A DNA stretch of 64,000 nucleotides, taken from assembly GCF_029227855.1 (NCBI RefSeq), contig NZ_CP074356.1; one strand, given 5' to 3'. Below, in pieces: positions 2,995 through 42,877 of the stretch. The stretch's first letter is position 1. Each line of letters opens with the position of its first letter. Source of the stretch: Escherichia coli (GTDB lineage Bacteria > Pseudomonadota > Gammaproteobacteria > Enterobacterales > Enterobacteriaceae). The notes under the pieces are model-generated. The model had not been told where the DNA came from. It saw only the letters and a list, made by a program, of their open reading frames with translations, and did not search any database. Made by a program: the position numbers and the translations under genes.

Positions 2995-6049
<3,055 letters not shown>

Positions 6050-6064
6050 TTTCTCTATTTTCCT

Positions 6065-6961
6065 TCAGTAACAGCAGTAGCGAATAAAATAAAAAAATAC
6101 CGGAGCGGTGAAAATTAATGAGTCAATCCTGTCAAGGAGTCCGCCATGTCCTGGTAATAGTTTTCCACTATCTTTAACACCAATATCTCGTTTGATGGCT
6201 GACATCACTACATCGCCGCAAAAACCACTAATACCAATTAACAAACCCGCTAATAATGCCTGTAATGTATCTAGCGGTGTCAGCAACGGTCCAATAATCA
6301 GTGACGCAATCATGGTGGTGATTACGCCGCCCATCAGACCTTCCAATGTTTTTCCCGGGCTGACTTTAGGGACCACTTTTCTTCTGCCGCAGGATTTTCC
6401 CCATAAATACTGTGCAATATCGTTTGACTCGGTTAATGCCAAAAGAAATAACACCAGTAACGCCCCGCCCTGGATATTTGTGGTTGGCAACATTAATAAC
6501 CAGGCGGCATGACTCAAGGCGAAAACGGTCATTATCCAGCCACAAAAAATGGCGCTCACGGTATGCAGAAAACCGGAGGGGTCACCCACTAAAACTCGCC
6601 AGGTGGCTAATATCAGAAACCCAGCCAAAGGTATAAATAACAGAAACAGCTCAAAGCAATTAAAACCGATAAGCAAATAGTTAAGAGGAATACCCCAATA
6701 TAACCAACGCGGAAAATGTACAGATATAAGCGTACAATATTCTTTCAATGCCAGAAAACTTATCAGCGCAAAAAACGTCAACGTCATCCAGCGTGGACCT
6801 GAAATCACCATTGAAAAACAAATGACGATGCCCCACCAAGTACGAATACGTAATGTAACTTCATCCCCTTTTCTCTCCGGTAACCGCCATACCAGAAAAC
6901 GGTTTATCAGCGTTGCTAAAATTAACAACGCGAAAAGTGTTGCCAGAGATTTTTCCAGCAT
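6065..6961 (-). CDS. ynbB: CDP-diglyceride synthetase (CdsA)-family integral membrane protein
   Basis: 298-aa polytopic membrane ORF; start ATG overlaps ynbA stop (ATGA). Confidence 0.85.
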   Translation of the reverse strand: MLEKSLATLFALLILATLINRFLVWRLPERKGDEVTLRIRTWWGIVICFSMVISGPRWMTLTFFALISFLALKEYCTLISVHFPRWLYWGIPLNYLLIGFNCFELFLLFIPLAGFLILATWRVLVGDPSGFLHTVSAIFCGWIMTVFALSHAAWLLMLPTTNIQGGALLVLFLLALTESNDIAQYLWGKSCGRRKVVPKVSPGKTLEGLMGGVITTMIASLIIGPLLTPLDTLQALLAGLLIGISGFCGDVVMSAIKRDIGVKDSGKLLPGHGGLLDRIDSLIFTAPVFFYFIRYCCY

Positions 6962-7572
6962 TATCTTTCAGCGCTCATAAGAAGCACACTCCGACAACGA
7001 TTAATCGCAGTCCAGAGAAGCAGAATTGAAGCAATGCTCCATAAAAGATTATTCCATTGCATCCATTGTGGATAAATGGCAATGGCCAGACCCCACAGAC
7101 CAAATATTAACGCGCGATCGCTTTTGCCAAATGGACCGACATAACTACGAATACCGTTAATCGTCTGCGCGAGTAAACCGCAAAACTCGGTCAATATGGT
7201 GCAAAATAACATGATTATCACGAGTGATGCGTTACTTTCCGGTAAAAATAAAAACGGTAAATAGAGCGCAATATCGGAAATAACATCGCCAGTCTCATTC
7301 AAAATCGCCCCAAGACGTGTTTGCTGATTGCACTCACGCGCCAACATGCCATCCAGCGCATTGAGTGCCATACGAATAAAAAGCACAATGGGCAATAGCA
7401 AAAAGAGGATGGGTTGTGCCACCAACATCAACAGCAATCCGCTAAGAAGAGAAAGTGCCAGTGCAGCAAGAGTGATGTGATTCGCTGTAACATGGTGCTT
7501 ATTAAGCCAAAACATCGTCGGCCTTAACAGCGACTGAAAGAGCGGTTTTATCTGGTAGAGCGTCATTATCAA
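6961..7572 (-). CDS. ynbA: CDP-alcohol phosphatidyltransferase-family membrane protein
   Basis: 203-aa hydrophobic ORF, first gene of the ynbABCD operon. Confidence 0.85.
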   Translation of the reverse strand: MIMTLYQIKPLFQSLLRPTMFWLNKHHVTANHITLAALALSLLSGLLLMLVAQPILFLLLPIVLFIRMALNALDGMLARECNQQTRLGAILNETGDVISDIALYLPFLFLPESNASLVIIMLFCTILTEFCGLLAQTINGIRSYVGPFGKSDRALIFGLWGLAIAIYPQWMQWNNLLWSIASILLLWTAINRCRSVLLMSAER

Positions 7573-7734
7573 TCCTTGATAATTCTGTTTGCGCTATGGT
7601 GCATCAATTGCCCTGACAGAGATATCGCAACACGCCGCTTCAATAAAAATTCAGAATATATCAAGGTATTGGGGCTCACTGTCAGGAATGATTATCCACA
7701 ATTAATCAAATAGTTAAAAATATTACGCTGTTAT

Positions 7735-10047
7735 TCAATGCAACTCATCAAGTTTTCTCATCGCTTGTTCCCGTATTGCGCGCGTCTTATCGTTAAGCGC
7801 CAGCTGCCGAACTAAATCCAGTTCAGGGTTAACAAGCTCTAACGCCAGCAAAGGATCACGTTTCAGCCTCGCCTTTAATACATCAACTGGAAAACGGGGA
7901 TTATTCATCGCCACAATCCACCACTCGGGATCAATTTCTGCCGCCAGTACTGCAGGCGGTGTGTGGCGGTTGTTAAGTGCGCCGAACTTGAAAAATGTGA
8001 GATTGCTTTTCGCCAGTGTACTCCACCATATACGATCCGGTTGTTTTGCCAGTTTATCCAGTTGTGCTAACGCATCGGGGTCTAGTGCATAATAAACACG
8101 TAACGCTTCGTTAACCTGCGCACGGGAACTGTTTTCCTGCCTCAGAAAAAACTTCGCCCAAATATCATTGCGTGGCGTGTTTTGCTGTAATTCCTTGAGA
8201 ACAACAGCGGGTAAATTATCCCAACTAATTAATGCACTCTCTAAAAAGTCCCAGTCGTCCGAACGTATCAGAGAGGTGGCATTTAATAGCATCTGGTCAT
8301 CAACTTCACCGTAGCTGATAAGCTCAGACAAAATCATATCAGCGCTGGTTTCATATGCATCTGAATCTGCTTTGGGATTATTTTTCCGATGCGATAAAGC
8401 ACGTTGCCAAATTTTTTGTTTCATCGACGTGCTCAGATACTGATTTTTCGCCAAATTACTCCACCCCTCAGGATCGTTGAAACGTGTCAATAACCGTTGT
8501 AAAGCAGCGTCAGAGTGAATTACCTGCATATCCCGACAGCAAAAGTAGGCAGGGGATTTTTTCTCCATCTTTTTAACAAAATTAAACTGTAAGTTATCTG
8601 GCAATGCTAAAAATAACACACGTATTAGATCATCGTCATTCTCGAATTTTTGGTATAAATATACTGCTATTTTGTCACTCTCTTGTGGCGTCATCCGCAA
8701 CAATTGACCATGGTGTTTCATCTCTGCCAGCTTTGACGCTAAGCTTGTGACAACATCGTTTGATGAATCGTTCGCCAACTGCATTGCCTGATTGTAGGTG
8801 AGTTGTCCTCCAGCACCGACCTGACGAATAGAGAAATCATCACTGCGGATATAGCCATCAATAATGGATTCGGGCAATAACCACGCATCTTTATAAAGCT
8901 CCTGAATGATCATATCCCAATCTCTTTTCGCCAGAGTCATGACGATATCCAGAGGGAGATTTTCACGTAGCGCAAGATTCAACGGACCGACACCATCAGG
9001 TAGATGACTCATTCGCGTCATTATTTCGACAGAGAGCGGTTCACGGTCGAGCAACCCCAGAACAACAGGCTGGTAACCCAATTGCTGATCGGTCAACTCC
9101 AGAATCTCATTGTCAGGCATATATCTCGCCATACTTGCAATCGTTTGTCCATCATTGCTATTAATAAGTTGTTTGCGTAGGTTAGCTGAAATTCCTTTAA
9201 GCCTTGGGAGAGTTCGCATTATGGCAAGATCAAATGTCGCAATGTCTCGTCCTTCAAATGCAGCAACGTTGCCTTCATCCAGCATTTGTAATTCCTGCAC
9301 TAATTCAGGTGAAGGCTTAGGGCGAAACAGCGCTTCTTTTTTCATCTGATTACAGACATTCCCTGCTATGCGAATATTGCTTCGCTTAAAAATTTCTTTC
9401 AGAGCATCTTCATCATTTATTAGGCCCCAATAATATGCATCAGGATTTATTATCGTCAGCGCTTTTTTGACATTTTCAGTGTCATTTTTGTCACTCGCAC
9501 GGACCATGAATTCACTATTTGTCGAAGACGCAACAACAGGTGCGATTATATCATTGATAAATATCCCGCGCGCATTAATACTCCCCTTAATCGTAGACGG
9601 ATTATCGTAATATGAGTCGATAAATACCAGTCCACTTGCATTTATCGAACCGGTAATTAACAGTGGTGAATCCGTAACTATATTCGTTGCCGTCACGTTA
9701 CCGAGAATAACCCATGGATTAGAAAGAGAGAAAGTGGAAATATTACCTTTGACTGTCAAATTGCCAAGAACAATCAATTTTTGATTACTCTCTATATTAC
9801 CTTCTACCACTAAATCGCCACGATGCACTTTCCAGTCCGATGCAGATAAACCGAAGGGGACAAGATTCACGCTACTGTTGATAGCTTGTTCAACTTGTTG
9901 TTTATCTTCAGCGGTAGCCGCAGAAAAAAATGGTTCAATATCAACTGCATTTGCAACACATCGAAGTTCCGCCTGTACTGGAAGACTCAGCATAAACAGG
10001 GGAAGTAAACCTATCCAGCTGCAAATCCTGGGCTTAAACATATGCAC
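7735..10047 (-). CDS. ydbD: Uncharacterised protein YdbD with N-terminal signal peptide
   Basis: 770-aa ORF with signal-peptide-like N-terminus (MHMFKPRICSWIGLLPLFMLSLPVQA); position next to ydbC. Confidence 0.85.
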   Translation of the reverse strand: MHMFKPRICSWIGLLPLFMLSLPVQAELRCVANAVDIEPFFSAATAEDKQQVEQAINSSVNLVPFGLSASDWKVHRGDLVVEGNIESNQKLIVLGNLTVKGNISTFSLSNPWVILGNVTATNIVTDSPLLITGSINASGLVFIDSYYDNPSTIKGSINARGIFINDIIAPVVASSTNSEFMVRASDKNDTENVKKALTIINPDAYYWGLINDEDALKEIFKRSNIRIAGNVCNQMKKEALFRPKPSPELVQELQMLDEGNVAAFEGRDIATFDLAIMRTLPRLKGISANLRKQLINSNDGQTIASMARYMPDNEILELTDQQLGYQPVVLGLLDREPLSVEIMTRMSHLPDGVGPLNLALRENLPLDIVMTLAKRDWDMIIQELYKDAWLLPESIIDGYIRSDDFSIRQVGAGGQLTYNQAMQLANDSSNDVVTSLASKLAEMKHHGQLLRMTPQESDKIAVYLYQKFENDDDLIRVLFLALPDNLQFNFVKKMEKKSPAYFCCRDMQVIHSDAALQRLLTRFNDPEGWSNLAKNQYLSTSMKQKIWQRALSHRKNNPKADSDAYETSADMILSELISYGEVDDQMLLNATSLIRSDDWDFLESALISWDNLPAVVLKELQQNTPRNDIWAKFFLRQENSSRAQVNEALRVYYALDPDALAQLDKLAKQPDRIWWSTLAKSNLTFFKFGALNNRHTPPAVLAAEIDPEWWIVAMNNPRFPVDVLKARLKRDPLLALELVNPELDLVRQLALNDKTRAIREQAMRKLDELH

Positions 10048-10104
10048 TCCATGCCATTAAAAAAGAAACAAAAGGGAAATGCATCTTTCCCTTTTGTATA
10101 TTCG

Positions 10105-10965
10105 TTATTCTCGCGATATACCATCCAACGTAGACAACACTTCCTCAGAAAGATGCAATTTTTCAGCAGCCATATTCTCCCGTAAATGCGCAACAGAAGA
10201 CGTCCCTGGGATCAGCAAAATATTCGGTGAACGTTGTAACAGCCACGCCAGCGCCACCTGCATGGGTGTTGCACCCAGGCTCGCAGCAACATCCGACAGC
10301 GTAGAGGATTGCAGCGGTGTAAAGCCCCCGAGCGGGAAGAACGGCACGTAAGCAATGCCATCGTGGGCCAAAGCATCAATCATTGCATCATCAGCACGGT
10401 GCGCGATGTTGTATTCGTTTTGCACACAGACAATTTCGGCAATCTTGCGCGCCTCTGCAACCTGCGTCGGTGTGACGTTGCTCAGGCCAATATGTTTTAC
10501 CAGGCCTTGTTGTTGCATCTCTGCCAGCACGGTCAGGCTGGCCTCAATCGATCCTTCCGCTGGGCCATGACCATCCCCCATCATAACGCGCAGGTTAACC
10601 ACATCCAGTACGTCCAGGCCGAGATTACGTAGATTATCGTGCACCGCTTTTTGCAACTCTGCCGGAGAACAGGCGGGCAACCAGGAAGCGTCCTCTCCAC
10701 GCCGCGCACCAATTTTAGTGACAATTGTCAGGTCGTCAGAGTAAGGATAAAGCGCTTCGCGGATAATCTGATTGGTGACGTGCGGACCATAAAAGTCGCT
10801 GGTATCAATGTGATTGACGCCCAATGCCAGCGCCTCGCGCAGTACAGTTATAGCGACGTGGCGATCTCTTGGGGGGCCAAAAACCCCAGGACCTGCCAGT
10901 TGCATCGCGCCATAACCAAGACGGTTAACGGATTTTGTACCGAGAGTAAATGTATTGCTGCTCAT
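10105..10965 (-). CDS. ydbC: Aldo-keto reductase family oxidoreductase
   Basis: 286-aa ORF, AKR fold (GYGAMQLAG... HIDTSDFYG). Confidence 0.88.
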   Translation of the reverse strand: MSSNTFTLGTKSVNRLGYGAMQLAGPGVFGPPRDRHVAITVLREALALGVNHIDTSDFYGPHVTNQIIREALYPYSDDLTIVTKIGARRGEDASWLPACSPAELQKAVHDNLRNLGLDVLDVVNLRVMMGDGHGPAEGSIEASLTVLAEMQQQGLVKHIGLSNVTPTQVAEARKIAEIVCVQNEYNIAHRADDAMIDALAHDGIAYVPFFPLGGFTPLQSSTLSDVAASLGATPMQVALAWLLQRSPNILLIPGTSSVAHLRENMAAEKLHLSEEVLSTLDGISRE

Positions 10966-11131
10966 CGCACCCTGCCCTGTAATAAAACGGATTGAGAAAA
11001 ATCAGTATAGAAACGAAAAGAGATAAATAATGCGAAGGCGTAAACAAGATTACTGGATGAGTTGCTCTATTGTCCTGAAAGACACCAAAACAAAACGCGT
11101 AAAGCGCCGCATTCGGCAATAAAATAAATAT

Positions 11132-11155
11132 CCTCCGGCATAGCCGGAGGTTTTT
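11132..11155. terminator. GC-rich hairpin plus T-run between ydbC upstream region and the IS element
   Basis: cctccggc-ata-gccggagg followed by ttttt on the plus strand. Confidence 0.45.
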
Positions 11156-11159
11156 CAAA

Positions 11160-11880
11160 TGCGCCTATAAGGCTCTCTTACCAGCCGCGCCCTAACAGGC
11201 GCACACGATCTGACATTTGCATCCAACTTCGTTACTTACGGCCCGTAAACGGGCTGCCCGGATAGGGAATCGATAACTGCTCTCCCATTTTATCCTCTTC
11301 AAGCTGGTGCTTTATGTAATCCTGTATCTTCGCCGTGTTCTTACCCACCGTATCGACGTAGTACCCTCTGCACCAGAACTCCCTGTTCCTGTATTTGAAT
11401 TTCAAATCACCAAACTGCTCGTAAAGCATCAGACTGCTTTTCCCTTTCAGATATCCCATAAAGCCGGATACGCTCATTTTGGGCGGGATCTCCACAAGCA
11501 TATGGATATGATCTGCACAGCATTCAGCTTCCAGAATCCGTACACTTTTCCACTCACACAGCTTTCTCAAAATACTGCCTATTGCTCTACGCTTCTCTCT
11601 GTAGAACACCTGTCTTCGGTATTTTGGCGCAAAAACTATGTGATATTTACAGTTCCATCGGGTGTGCGCTAAGCTCTTTTCGTTCCCCATTGGGACCCCC
11701 TTTTGATTTCTTGTTTGACACTTGCAGTTGCCAGACCGCAAGGTGTTTTAACAAATCAAAAGGGGTTTTAATAACTGGCTTAAAGCTGAAAGCTTTCCGG
11801 AACCCCCAGCCTAGCTGGGGGTTTTCTGTGCACAAAAAACCGCAACCTGTATCAGCGTTGCGGTTTAGGTATCACATGCT
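11160..11880 (-). mobile_element. IS200-like insertion sequence (IS200/IS605 family); boundaries approximate
   Basis: Single Y1/HuH transposase gene flanked by short non-coding arms with stem-loops (cccccagc-ctag-gctggggg at 11805-11823; aaccgcaac...gttgcggtt at 11840-11866); about 0.7 kb, as expected for IS200; ends not mapped. Confidence 0.7.
11232..11690 (-). CDS. tnpA: IS200/IS605-family transposase TnpA (Y1 HuH)
   Basis: MGNEKSLAHTRWNCKYHIVFAPKYRR...HIHMLVEIPP (HuH motif)...; ATG at 11688-11690 preceded by aaaggggg RBS; the 169-aa track ORF has a spurious N-terminal extension. Confidence 0.9.
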   Translation of the reverse strand: MGNEKSLAHTRWNCKYHIVFAPKYRRQVFYREKRRAIGSILRKLCEWKSVRILEAECCADHIHMLVEIPPKMSVSGFMGYLKGKSSLMLYEQFGDLKFKYRNREFWCRGYYVDTVGKNTAKIQDYIKHQLEEDKMGEQLSIPYPGSPFTGRK

Positions 11881-11886
11881 AAAAAT

Positions 11887-11912
11887 TAGAACGTCCAGCA
11901 TCAGGACGTTAC
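11887..11912 (-). terminator. Hairpin plus T-run at the paaY stop codon
   Basis: minus strand reads TAA-cgtcctgatgctggacgtt-ctaattttt. Confidence 0.45.
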
Positions 11913-12499
11913 TGTTTCGGTCGCAGATTCTCATCAAATACCAAGCGTTTCCTGCCAGGTTCAACTTCCCGCAATGGCTCAACTTGATGTAACGTCTGCT
12001 TACAGCGTGTCACCAGCACCTGGTACTCATGCGTACCCTGCTTTTTCCATGCCAACTCCTGCTCACTGAGTTCACGAATCGCTTTCGCCGGGCTGCCGAC
12101 AATCAGGTAATTAGCAGGCATTTCTGCTTTGGCTTTCACAAATGCGGATGCACCCACAATACTGTTCTCACCAATCACCGCACCGTCCATCACTACCGCA
12201 TTCATTCCCACTAATGCATTGCGGCGGATAATGCAGCCGTGAAGGATAGCGCTATGACCAATATGCCCATCTTCTTCCACGACAGTATCCTGCTCGGGAA
12301 AACCGTGCATAACGCAATTATCCTGAATGTTCGCGCCATCTTTCACCACGATACGACCAAAATCGCCACGCAGGCTGGCATTTGGCCCAACGTACACGCC
12401 CTTGCCGAGAATAACATCGCCGATCAATACCGCTGTCGGATGGACAAAACTCTCTTCTGGCACAACCGGAGTCAGACCGTCTATCTGATAAATTGGCAT
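11909..12499 (-). CDS. paaY: Hexapeptide-repeat thioesterase/acetyltransferase of the phenylacetate pathway
   Basis: 196-aa left-handed beta-helix (hexapeptide) protein, last gene of the paa cluster. Confidence 0.9.
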
Positions 12500-41941: not shown

Positions 41942-42877
41942 ATGTCGCAAAATCAAGAAATTAGTAAGAAAGAACAATACAACCTGAACAAATTACAAAA
42001 ACGTCTGCGTCGTAACGTGGGCGAAGCCATTGCTGACTTCAATATGATTGAAGAAGGCGATCGCATCATGGTTTGCCTCTCCGGGGGTAAAGATAGCTAT
42101 ACCATGCTGGAAATTCTGCGCAATTTGCAGCAAAGCGCGCCAATCAATTTTTCGCTGGTGGCTGTCAACCTCGATCAAAAACAACCGGGCTTCCCGGAAC
42201 ACGTTCTGCCCGAGTATCTTGAAAAGCTGGGCGTTGAGTACAAGATTGTGGAAGAGAACACTTACGGTATCGTGAAAGAGAAGATTCCGGAGGGCAAAAC
42301 CACTTGCTCACTGTGTTCTCGTCTTCGTCGCGGAATTCTTTACCGTACCGCAACGGAACTGGGAGCGACGAAGATCGCGCTGGGTCACCATCGTGACGAT
42401 ATCCTGCAAACGTTGTTCTTAAATATGTTCTACGGCGGCAAGATGAAAGGTATGCCTCCGAAACTGATGAGCGATGATGGCAAACATATCGTGATTCGCC
42501 CGCTGGCCTACTGCCGCGAGAAAGATATTCAGCGCTTTGCCGATGCAAAAGCGTTCCCGATTATTCCGTGCAACCTGTGCGGTTCACAGCCTAACCTGCA
42601 ACGTCAGGTGATTGCTGACATGTTGCGTGACTGGGATAAACGTTATCCGGGGCGTATCGAGACGATGTTCAGCGCGATGCAGAATGTGGTGCCGTCGCAT
42701 CTGTGCGATACCAACCTGTTCGATTTCAAAGGCATTACCCACGGTTCTGAAGTGGTTAACGGGGGTGATCTGGCGTTTGATCGCGAAGAGATCCCTCTAC
42801 AACCGGCGGGTTGGCAGCCTGAAGAAGATGAAAATCAGTTGGATGAGTTACGGCTGAATGTGGTTGAAGTGAAATAA
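41942..42877 (+). CDS. ttcA: tRNA 2-thiocytidine(32) synthetase
   Basis: 311-aa ORF with PP-loop SGGKDS. Confidence 0.9.

Follow-up and report, generated by a model that had tools for sequence, protein, structure and literature searches.

An apparently intact IS200C element directly behind an intrinsic terminator between paaY and pdxI of Escherichia coli

We conclude, with a probability of roughly 97%, that IS200C, a member of the IS200 group within the IS200/IS605 family, is present as an intact and potentially mobile copy at positions 11122-11833 of the window (the whole 64,000-nucleotide stretch of E. coli DNA that was analysed). This is an ordinary copy of a long-known insertion sequence and no new kind of system. 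What goes slightly past the routine is the hot-spot behaviour of the terminator beside it, together with a target rule of terminator hairpin plus T run, which extends known family behaviour.

Transposase, limits and ends of the element

The original prediction of an IS200/IS605-family element of about 0.7 kb with a Y1/HuH transposase was borne out by matches to Pfam, NCBIfam and Rfam and by the ends of the element. The tnpA open reading frame (11232-11690, minus strand) encodes the quoted MGNEKSLAHTRWNCKYHIVFAPKYRR...HIHMLVEIPP... protein, a Y1/HUH transposase of 152 amino acids with the HUH motif H61-I62-H63, the catalytic Y125 and Q129. TnpA matched Pfam Y1_Tnp (PF01797) with an E-value of 3.8e-38 (130.7 bits, cut-off 23) and NCBIfam transpos_IS200 (NF033573, the equivalog 'IS200/IS605 family transposase') with 147.7 bits (cut-off 55). 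In PDB, the protein matched the Y1 transposases from Sulfolobus, IS608 and ISDra2 (E-values 4e-23 to 1e-14), and in the alignment with IS608 TnpA (2a6m, 3.9e-19) the HUH motif, Tyr125 and Gln129 were matched to catalytic residues. A Y125F substitution serves as the catalytically dead control for IS200 TnpA (PMC4513863). The protein sequence is identical to WP_000526135.1, and the name IS200C used here rests on the PGAP label of that identical protein, 'IS200C family transposase'.

We also considered whether the element could be a RAYT (TnpA-REP) or a two-gene element of the IS605/IS608 type, and both identities are extremely improbable. RAYTs have the HUH/Y1 fold, the HUH/Tyr chemistry and hairpin recognition in common with the element (PMC3333891), and TnpA does match REP_Tyr_transpos (NF047646) weakly; however, that match reached 32.2 bits against a cut-off of 80, compared with the score for transpos_IS200 of well over twice its own cut-off, and the RAYT identity was rejected on this basis. 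RAYTs are single-copy domesticated genes flanked by REP/BIME, whereas no REP arrays were found in 11090-11870. The two-gene reading is opposed by the ORF list, which contains no tnpB or second long ORF within the 712 bp. tnpA is the sole family-matching ORF there, the remaining ORFs overlapping it or leaving the element and being unsupported, and the element ends 110 bp past the tnpA stop codon, with no room for tnpB.

IS200 of Salmonella enterica was reportedly described by Lam and Roth in 1983 as an element of 707 bp. Compared with it by published description, the present copy differs in its length of 711-712 bp and agrees in its organization: a single 152-aa TnpA with Y125, the Shine-Dalgarno (SD) sequence AAGGGGGT, a 5'UTR recognised through Rfam STnc490, a left hairpin at nt 11-33 (12-34 in Salmonella numbering) and an SD-hiding stem-loop at nt 69-137 (69-138).

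The limits of the element were set by alignment with the IS200C copies at fkpA/yheO, at ybfA/rhs and in a CFT073 island, and with K-12 and empty sites. Homology among the copies is bounded by GTGCACAG... and ...GGATATTTATT(T); it starts with GTGCACAGAAAACCCCCAGC (window 11833, minus strand) and ends with ...CCGGAGGATATTTATT(T) (11122 or 11123). K-12 homology picks up at 11834 and below about 11127, with K-12 matching 11834-11894 and then 10800-11127. The complete IS200C occupies 11122..11833 on the minus strand and measures 712 bp, or 711 bp if the last T is counted as flank; as tip and flank both consist of T here, the right boundary can be placed to within 1-2 nt. The window's minus strand corresponds to the top strand of the element and is the sense strand for tnpA. 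The span of 11160-11880 first given for the element was thus about 40 bp off on each side. Megablast matches running 10-33 bp past the element suggested a longer unit of about 748 bp, which was rejected, as these alignments represent similar host terminators and T runs.

At the left end, the tip GTGCACAGAAAA (11822..11833, minus strand) finishes with AAAA, a putative guide directly 5' of the subterminal hairpin AACCCCCAGC-TAG-GCTGGGGGTT (11801..11823, minus strand; IS nt 11-33), which has a perfect 10-bp stem. The stem-loop quoted earlier as cccccagc-ctag-gctggggg is present at this position and is the left-end hairpin of the IS. In the match to Rfam STnc490 this hairpin makes up the first helix, and it is presumed to be both the site bound by TnpA on single-stranded DNA and the read-through barrier described for IS200. 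The left tip differs among lineages, but nearly all of the 124 listed left ends retain GAAAA before the hairpin.

The right end has a parallel layout, with GAAAAA (11151-11156, minus strand), a putative right guide preceding the hairpin on the top strand, the hairpin CCTCCGGC-TAT-GCCGGAGG (11132-11150, minus strand; IS nt 684-702) and the tip ATATTTATT(T) (11122..11131, minus strand). The hairpin and tip together were called terminator-like on the minus strand; from their sequence they look like a terminator for tnpA and resemble the element's own target. This hairpin had been noticed earlier as a terminator outside the element. Its existence is confirmed, but it is the right-end hairpin of the element and occurs in every copy. 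It was unchanged in all E. coli and Y. pestis copies compared, and the copy in Vibrio has a compensatory version of the stem (CCACCGG/CCGGTGG) with GAAAAA retained. An Rfam match of this hairpin alone to Ysr202 was rejected (27.8 bits, gathering score 315). Conversely, the second quoted stem-loop, aaccgcaac...gttgcggtt at 11837-11866, exists but is not an IS end: it is host DNA, a terminator that K-12 also has, with no IS at this site.

Both hairpins of the element lie about 10 nt from their tips, on the same strand, and their stems are related (CCCCCAGC and CCTCCGGC). The repeat search found no terminal inverted repeats and no inverted pair linking the two ends. DNA and RNA folds of the region gave z-scores of -4 to -5.

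The insertion site and its repeated occupation

The gene order on the minus strand is paaY (11909-12499), tnpA, ydbC (now pdxI, 10105-10965) and ydbD, so the predicted insertion between ydbC and paaY holds. The paa operon precedes the IS, and 157 bp separate the end of the IS from the pdxI start codon that follows. Its target is a host intrinsic terminator (11834..11866, minus strand), which consists of a stem at 11837-11866 (aaaccgcaac...gttgcggttt) and a T6 run at 11834-11839, with a DNA fold z-score of -4.78. The insertion point was located by comparison with uninterrupted junctions, as the original prediction had proposed. K-12 and Ec-042-T0 have the empty site GCGG-T7-ATTGCC, F9792 has GCGG-T6-ATTGCC, and the occupied site reads GCGG-T6, then the IS, then T-ATTGCC, which places the insertion after T6 of GCGG-T7-ATTGCC without target duplication. 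The suggested preference for hairpin-rich targets therefore stands and is sharpened: the left end immediately follows, on the 3' side, the T run that belongs to an intrinsic-terminator hairpin of the same orientation.

A terminator does adjoin the insertion as had been stated, but its assignment to paaY needs correction, as in K-12 it follows ydbA. Window 11834-11894 corresponds to 12006-12066 of the K-12 locus L003, i.e., the 3' end of ydbA and the terminator. K-12 carries the autotransporter pseudogene ydbA (8.6 kb including IS2D and IS30C) between paaY and pdxI, with ynbG beside it. Both ydbA and ynbG are deleted in the window lineage, which makes paaY and pdxI neighbours, and the last ydbA bases and the terminator come 14 nt past the paaY stop codon. 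The ydbA-less junction is also found, without the IS, in F9792 and Ec-042-T0. As judged from this comparison, the terminator in front of the IS is the former ydbA terminator, which now closes the paa operon in the window lineage. The insertion is flanked by insulating hairpins on both sides and is probably neutral for paaY and pdxI.

Full-length IS200 was found in 2063 of 5426 complete E. coli genomes, at up to 35 places per genome and with 1288 places on plasmids, which agrees with the view that only some E. coli lineages carry it; IS200 copies as such were counted at 10741 places in 3099 genomes. For the present insertion, the left junction (120 bp) occurs in just 7 of the 5426 genomes, and this rarity upholds its proposed value as a strain marker. 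The uninterrupted site occurs in at least 3222. JNEC-KY178 is the only one of the seven carriers with a 100% identical junction; the window matches it at 99.99-100% identity over the full length, save for a 53-kb island found only in JNEC-KY178. The PGAP annotation of JNEC-KY178, which has 24 IS200 places, shows no other transposase gene in the matching stretches, in line with the claim that the element is the only transposable element in the window. Over its 712 bp, the element is 100% identical to the copy in JNEC-KY178 and to the ybfA/rhs copy of another strain, and it is 99.3-99.9% identical to the copies at fkpA/yheO and in the CFT073 island. Its mobility is suggested by such near-identical copies at unrelated loci (100% for ybfA/rhs, 99.9% for fkpA/yheO).

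The same data bear on the opposite reading, in which the ORF would be a chromosomal gene that has been domesticated or has lost its mobility and is conserved where it lies. The presence of IS200 at the same terminator in seven genomes of different backgrounds could be taken in its favour, as could the very rare transposition of IS200 (PMC4513863). However, the position is occupied in 7 of 5426 genomes against at least 3222 with an uninterrupted site, copies 100% identical to the element lie at unrelated loci, both ends are complete, and the occupants are different isoforms inserted at slightly different nucleotides. The empty sites and the identical copies elsewhere rule out a conserved domesticated gene, and we assign this reading almost no probability.

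The seven carriers are JNEC-KY178, KE55, 200164, GMF065, HCP5S3_I2, LCP30S3_I5 and ETEC1738; among the swine strains, junctions were compared in HCP5S3_I2 and ETEC1738. KE55 and GMF065 have the same left junction as the window, and their IS is a 96% isoform with 26-27 substitutions in 712 bp and 4 amino-acid changes relative to the window copy. The IS of 200164 shows 6 differences from the window copy and lies in a more diverged background. HCP5S3_I2 and ETEC1738, both from swine, again carry the 96% isoform, inserted 3-4 nt further along (after T6ATT(T) and before GTGCAC), and pdxI is deleted beside its right end. By these comparisons, the IS200 copies at this terminator are of three sequence types or more, and they occupy two or more insertion points separated by 3-4 nt. 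The terminator is thus, as far as its occupants indicate, a recurrent hot spot with at least two insertion events. The 96% isoform is 100% identical at many other loci; since this is true of both isoforms, both are mobile.

The relationship between the window copy and that of KE55 and GMF065 admits another explanation, in which a resident 96% isoform in the window lineage was overwritten by gene conversion from IS200C or was replaced after precise excision. Over the 2 kb on the paaY side, the window matches its close relatives GMF065 and KE55 at 100% and 99.95% identity, respectively, but behind a common left junction their IS departs from the window copy at 26-27 of 712 positions. JNEC-KY178 has many more IS200 places than KE55, which has 2, and as the IS is present here in only seven of the 5426 genomes, independent insertions in two sister lineages would imply either coincidence or a very hot site. 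Against this history, the copy is not mosaic: each of the 27 differences, which run from nt 53 to nt 667, is in the IS200C state, and both end points of a conversion tract would have to fall in the outer 45-52 bp. Both isoforms are mobile by the identity criterion above, and the swine strains, with the IS 3-4 nt further along in another chromosomal background, prove that independent insertions at this terminator occur. We regard conversion or replacement as the less likely history, though one deserving of serious consideration, and lean only mildly towards a fresh insertion in the window lineage.

Terminator hairpins and T runs as a putative target

The placement behind a terminator is common to other copies of IS200. 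A co-oriented GC-rich hairpin with a T run abuts the left end at 13 of 13 independent E. coli sites examined. At the 12 sites with a named upstream gene (paaY, fkpA, ybfA, a CP4-like island gene, nagE, fdnI, yfeX, ompX, carB, ybiJ, amtB and pckA), the hairpin lies just past the stop codon of that co-oriented gene; the 150-bp flank retrieved for the thirteenth, by yqjG, contains no annotated upstream gene.

For a wider survey, the exact 22-mer of the left-end hairpin was searched in one genome per species, which yielded 120 loci with 118 distinct flanks. The loci were distributed in Yersinia, Vibrio, Edwardsiella and Brenneria, and also in Mailhella/Desulfovibrio, Bacillota and other metagenome-assembled genomes. 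By a strict test, a terminator-like hairpin with a T run was present at the left end in 92 of the 118 flanks read in the orientation of the IS, compared with 1 of the same 118 flanks when reverse-complemented and 33 of 3000 62-mers drawn at random from these loci (~1%). Many of the 26 flanks that failed the strict test showed bulged or long-loop hairpins by eye. TT stands right before the left end in 114 of the 118 flanks.

IS1541 of Y. pestis and Y. pseudotuberculosis, another member of the IS200 group, follows the same pattern. It has the left-end hairpin 22-mer, the right hairpin with the tip GAAAAACCTCCGGCTATGCCGGAGGATATTTATT and the placement behind a terminator hairpin and T run, and it differs in its left tip (GTGCCCAGAAAA versus GTGCACAGAAAA here), in its much higher copy number and in the head-to-tail dimers with a 710-bp period found in Y. 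pestis. In Y. pestis, the base after ...TATTTATT is variable, and in the head-to-tail copies ...TATTTATT is joined directly to GTGCCCAG. The right end of the element, with its hairpin and ATATTTATT, would mimic the target, and the dimers of Y. pestis would arise because of this mimicry.

From these data, we lean slightly towards the view that IS200-group elements may read intrinsic terminators as their target, which goes beyond mere nearness to hairpins. On this view, a host terminator hairpin would be exposed on the lagging-strand template, the AAAA guide would base-pair with the T run at the hairpin's 3' foot, and an element guided by such pairing would therefore land co-oriented and directly behind the terminator. 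A search of the full-text literature for this rule matched only one preprint (10.1101/2025.07.22.666184, 2025-26), and older IS1541/IS200 papers might state it. The preprint describes an enrichment of terminators upstream of IS200/IS605 elements and interprets this as an expression-limiting context, not as a target specified by the guide.

Proposed transposition, silencing and implications

The chemistry is best described for IS608 of Helicobacter pylori (PDB 2a6m, 2vjv), in which a tyrosine of TnpA cuts and rejoins one strand, insertion occurs 3' of the target, and each hairpin has on its 5' side a 4-nt guide that base-pairs with the cleavage and target sequence (PMC5934647). The element in the window resembles IS608 in its Y1/HUH TnpA, its subterminal hairpins on one strand, its duplication-free insertion 3' of a specific short sequence and its 4-nt guides 5' of each hairpin, which are putative here. 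IS608 differs in carrying tnpB and in its target TTAC and guide AAAG, compared with the T-run flank, the putative AAAA guides at both ends and the apparent target at the foot of a host hairpin in our element. We infer that the AAAA of IS200C, just 5' of each hairpin, is the guide for T-rich cleavage and target sites, which would be recognised at the foot of terminator hairpins.

By analogy with IS608 and ISDra2, transposition would proceed by 'peel and paste'. A TnpA dimer would bind both top-strand hairpins on the single-stranded lagging-strand template and would cut, via Tyr125, past the flanking T run and past the right tip; a single-stranded circle would be released and the donor resealed, and the circle would then insert 3' of another T run. 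Excision and insertion in the family are biased to the lagging-strand template (PMC5027513). The GC skew of the plus strand of the window is -0.04 overall and -0.11 locally; this negative skew makes the top strand the G-rich one and therefore the likely lagging-strand template. The top-strand orientation of the element would be consistent with the bias of the family.

Several features of the element point to tight control of tnpA. The predicted ribosome-binding site of its own is present, with the SD AAGGGGGT at window 11695-11702, and it is buried by a stem-loop in the 5'UTR (11697..11765, minus strand; IS nt 69-137). The 5'UTR matched Rfam STnc490 (RF01405, the IS200 5'UTR) at 11700-11823 on the minus strand with 146.1 bits (gathering score 56), its sequence being nearly identical to the consensus, and the RNA fold of the first 154 nt gave -60.5 kcal/mol (z = -4.97). 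In Salmonella IS200, a left-end terminator at nt 12-34 stops read-through, transcription starts near nt 40, a stem-loop at nt 69-138 buries the SD, and Hfq is among the controls (PMC4513863). The same study placed the 5' ends of the 90-nt art200 at IS200 nt 153/154 and found its -10 element almost unrecognisable (PMC4513863). The position transferred from Salmonella IS200 predicts an art200 antisense sRNA at 11681..11771 on the plus strand, complementary to the 5'UTR of tnpA plus its first three codons. A consensus scan of 10900-12000 found no sigma-70 promoter for tnpA or art200. If the controls of Salmonella IS200 apply, tnpA would be expressed at a very low level: the host terminator and the left-end hairpin would stop read-through into tnpA, a weak promoter would start transcription near nt 40, and translation would be held back by the stem-loop hiding the SD, by antisense art200 and by Hfq.

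These RNAs raise the question of whether the copy is also a host sRNA locus, from which a processed tnpA 5'UTR, art200 or both would act in trans. The near-consensus 5'UTR would fit such a role, the tnpA 5'UTR of Salmonella IS200 gives regulatory RNAs (PMC5435999), and a trans role of art200 has been discussed together with the paradox that a dormant element exists in many copies (PMC4513863). However, nothing in the window bears on a trans target in E. coli, and the copy number, which varies between 0 and 35 in E. coli genomes, speaks against a host function that is conserved. We therefore consider a host role improbable and return to the reading of a quiet mobile element.

In summary, the reading of the hairpins in the paaY-pdxI spacer is corrected, and the IS200C/terminator junction is a sharp clonal marker for the window lineage. 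If the target rule is true, terminator targeting would account for the recurrent insertions of three IS200 sequence types at two points in seven genomes, and the well-known transcriptional silence of IS200 would be a by-product of its target choice. Such a rule would help to annotate the ends of these elements and would explain the quietness of the IS200 group.

Deletions and junctions beside IS200

At window 11834-11911, comparison with the K-12 locus (positions 3062-12066 of that locus) showed that ydbA and ynbG have been deleted. In K-12, ydbA is a pseudogene of the autotransporter type into which IS2D and IS30C are inserted; all that remains of ydbA in the window is its final few bases and the terminator, located 14 nt past the paaY stop codon. 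The identical ydbA-less junction was also detected in F9792 and Ec-042-T0, where it is present without any IS.

Deletions were also observed on the pdxI side in other genomes carrying IS200 at the paaY-pdxI terminator. In the swine strains HCP5S3_I2 and ETEC1738, pdxI is absent and the right end of IS200 is fused straight to ydbD-adjacent sequence (positions 2325-2460 of the compared loci); this loss of pdxI is a deletion adjoining the IS200 right end. The paa operon is mostly deleted in both strains and in 200164. In GMF065, the right junction consists of GGATATTTATT followed directly by GCCGAATG; the (T)ATT that empty sites and the other carriers have is missing from it, either through a small deletion or because the joint is a different one.

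Left tip and 5'UTR RNA of IS200C

At window 11813-11848, an inverted-pair scan revealed that the left tip, GTGCACAGAAAA, nearly matches the reverse complement of the T run in the flank plus GTGCAC. In the E. coli copies, pairing between the T run of the target and the putative AAAA guide could thus give a single hairpin around the GTGCAC palindrome. Left tips in lineages other than E. coli are non-palindromic.

The Rfam model STnc490 matched window 11700-11823 on the tnpA-sense strand. STnc490/art200 was described as an RNA antisense to the tnpA 5'UTR (PMC4513863), so that Rfam and the literature disagree on the strand.

Comparison with JNEC-KY178

Although JNEC-KY178 is otherwise 99.99-100% identical to the window, it carries an island of approximately 53 kb between uspF and ttcA that is missing from the window at 41949-41991. 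The island contains sitABCD and a lambdoid prophage with an IS110-family gene, and it is bordered by a 43-bp repeat; the single copy of this repeat in the window (41949-41991) is the empty attachment site. The annotation of JNEC-KY178 gives ynbD (window 2995-4302) as a frameshifted pseudogene.

IS200-group ends in other genomes

Head-to-tail dimers of IS1541, an IS200-group element, were found in Yersinia pestis NCTC5923 at two loci with a 710-bp period (2660/3370 in L091 and 12604/13314 in L093), the right tip of the preceding copy being joined directly to the left end of the next. The exact 22-nt left-end hairpin of IS200 was also detected, frequently at contig ends, in metagenome-assembled genomes (loci L016-L087) labeled as Bacillota, Peptococcaceae, Saccharibacteria, Elusimicrobiaceae, Oxalobacter, and Mailhella/Desulfovibrio. 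These matches reflect either contamination of some bins or a very wide spread of the element.
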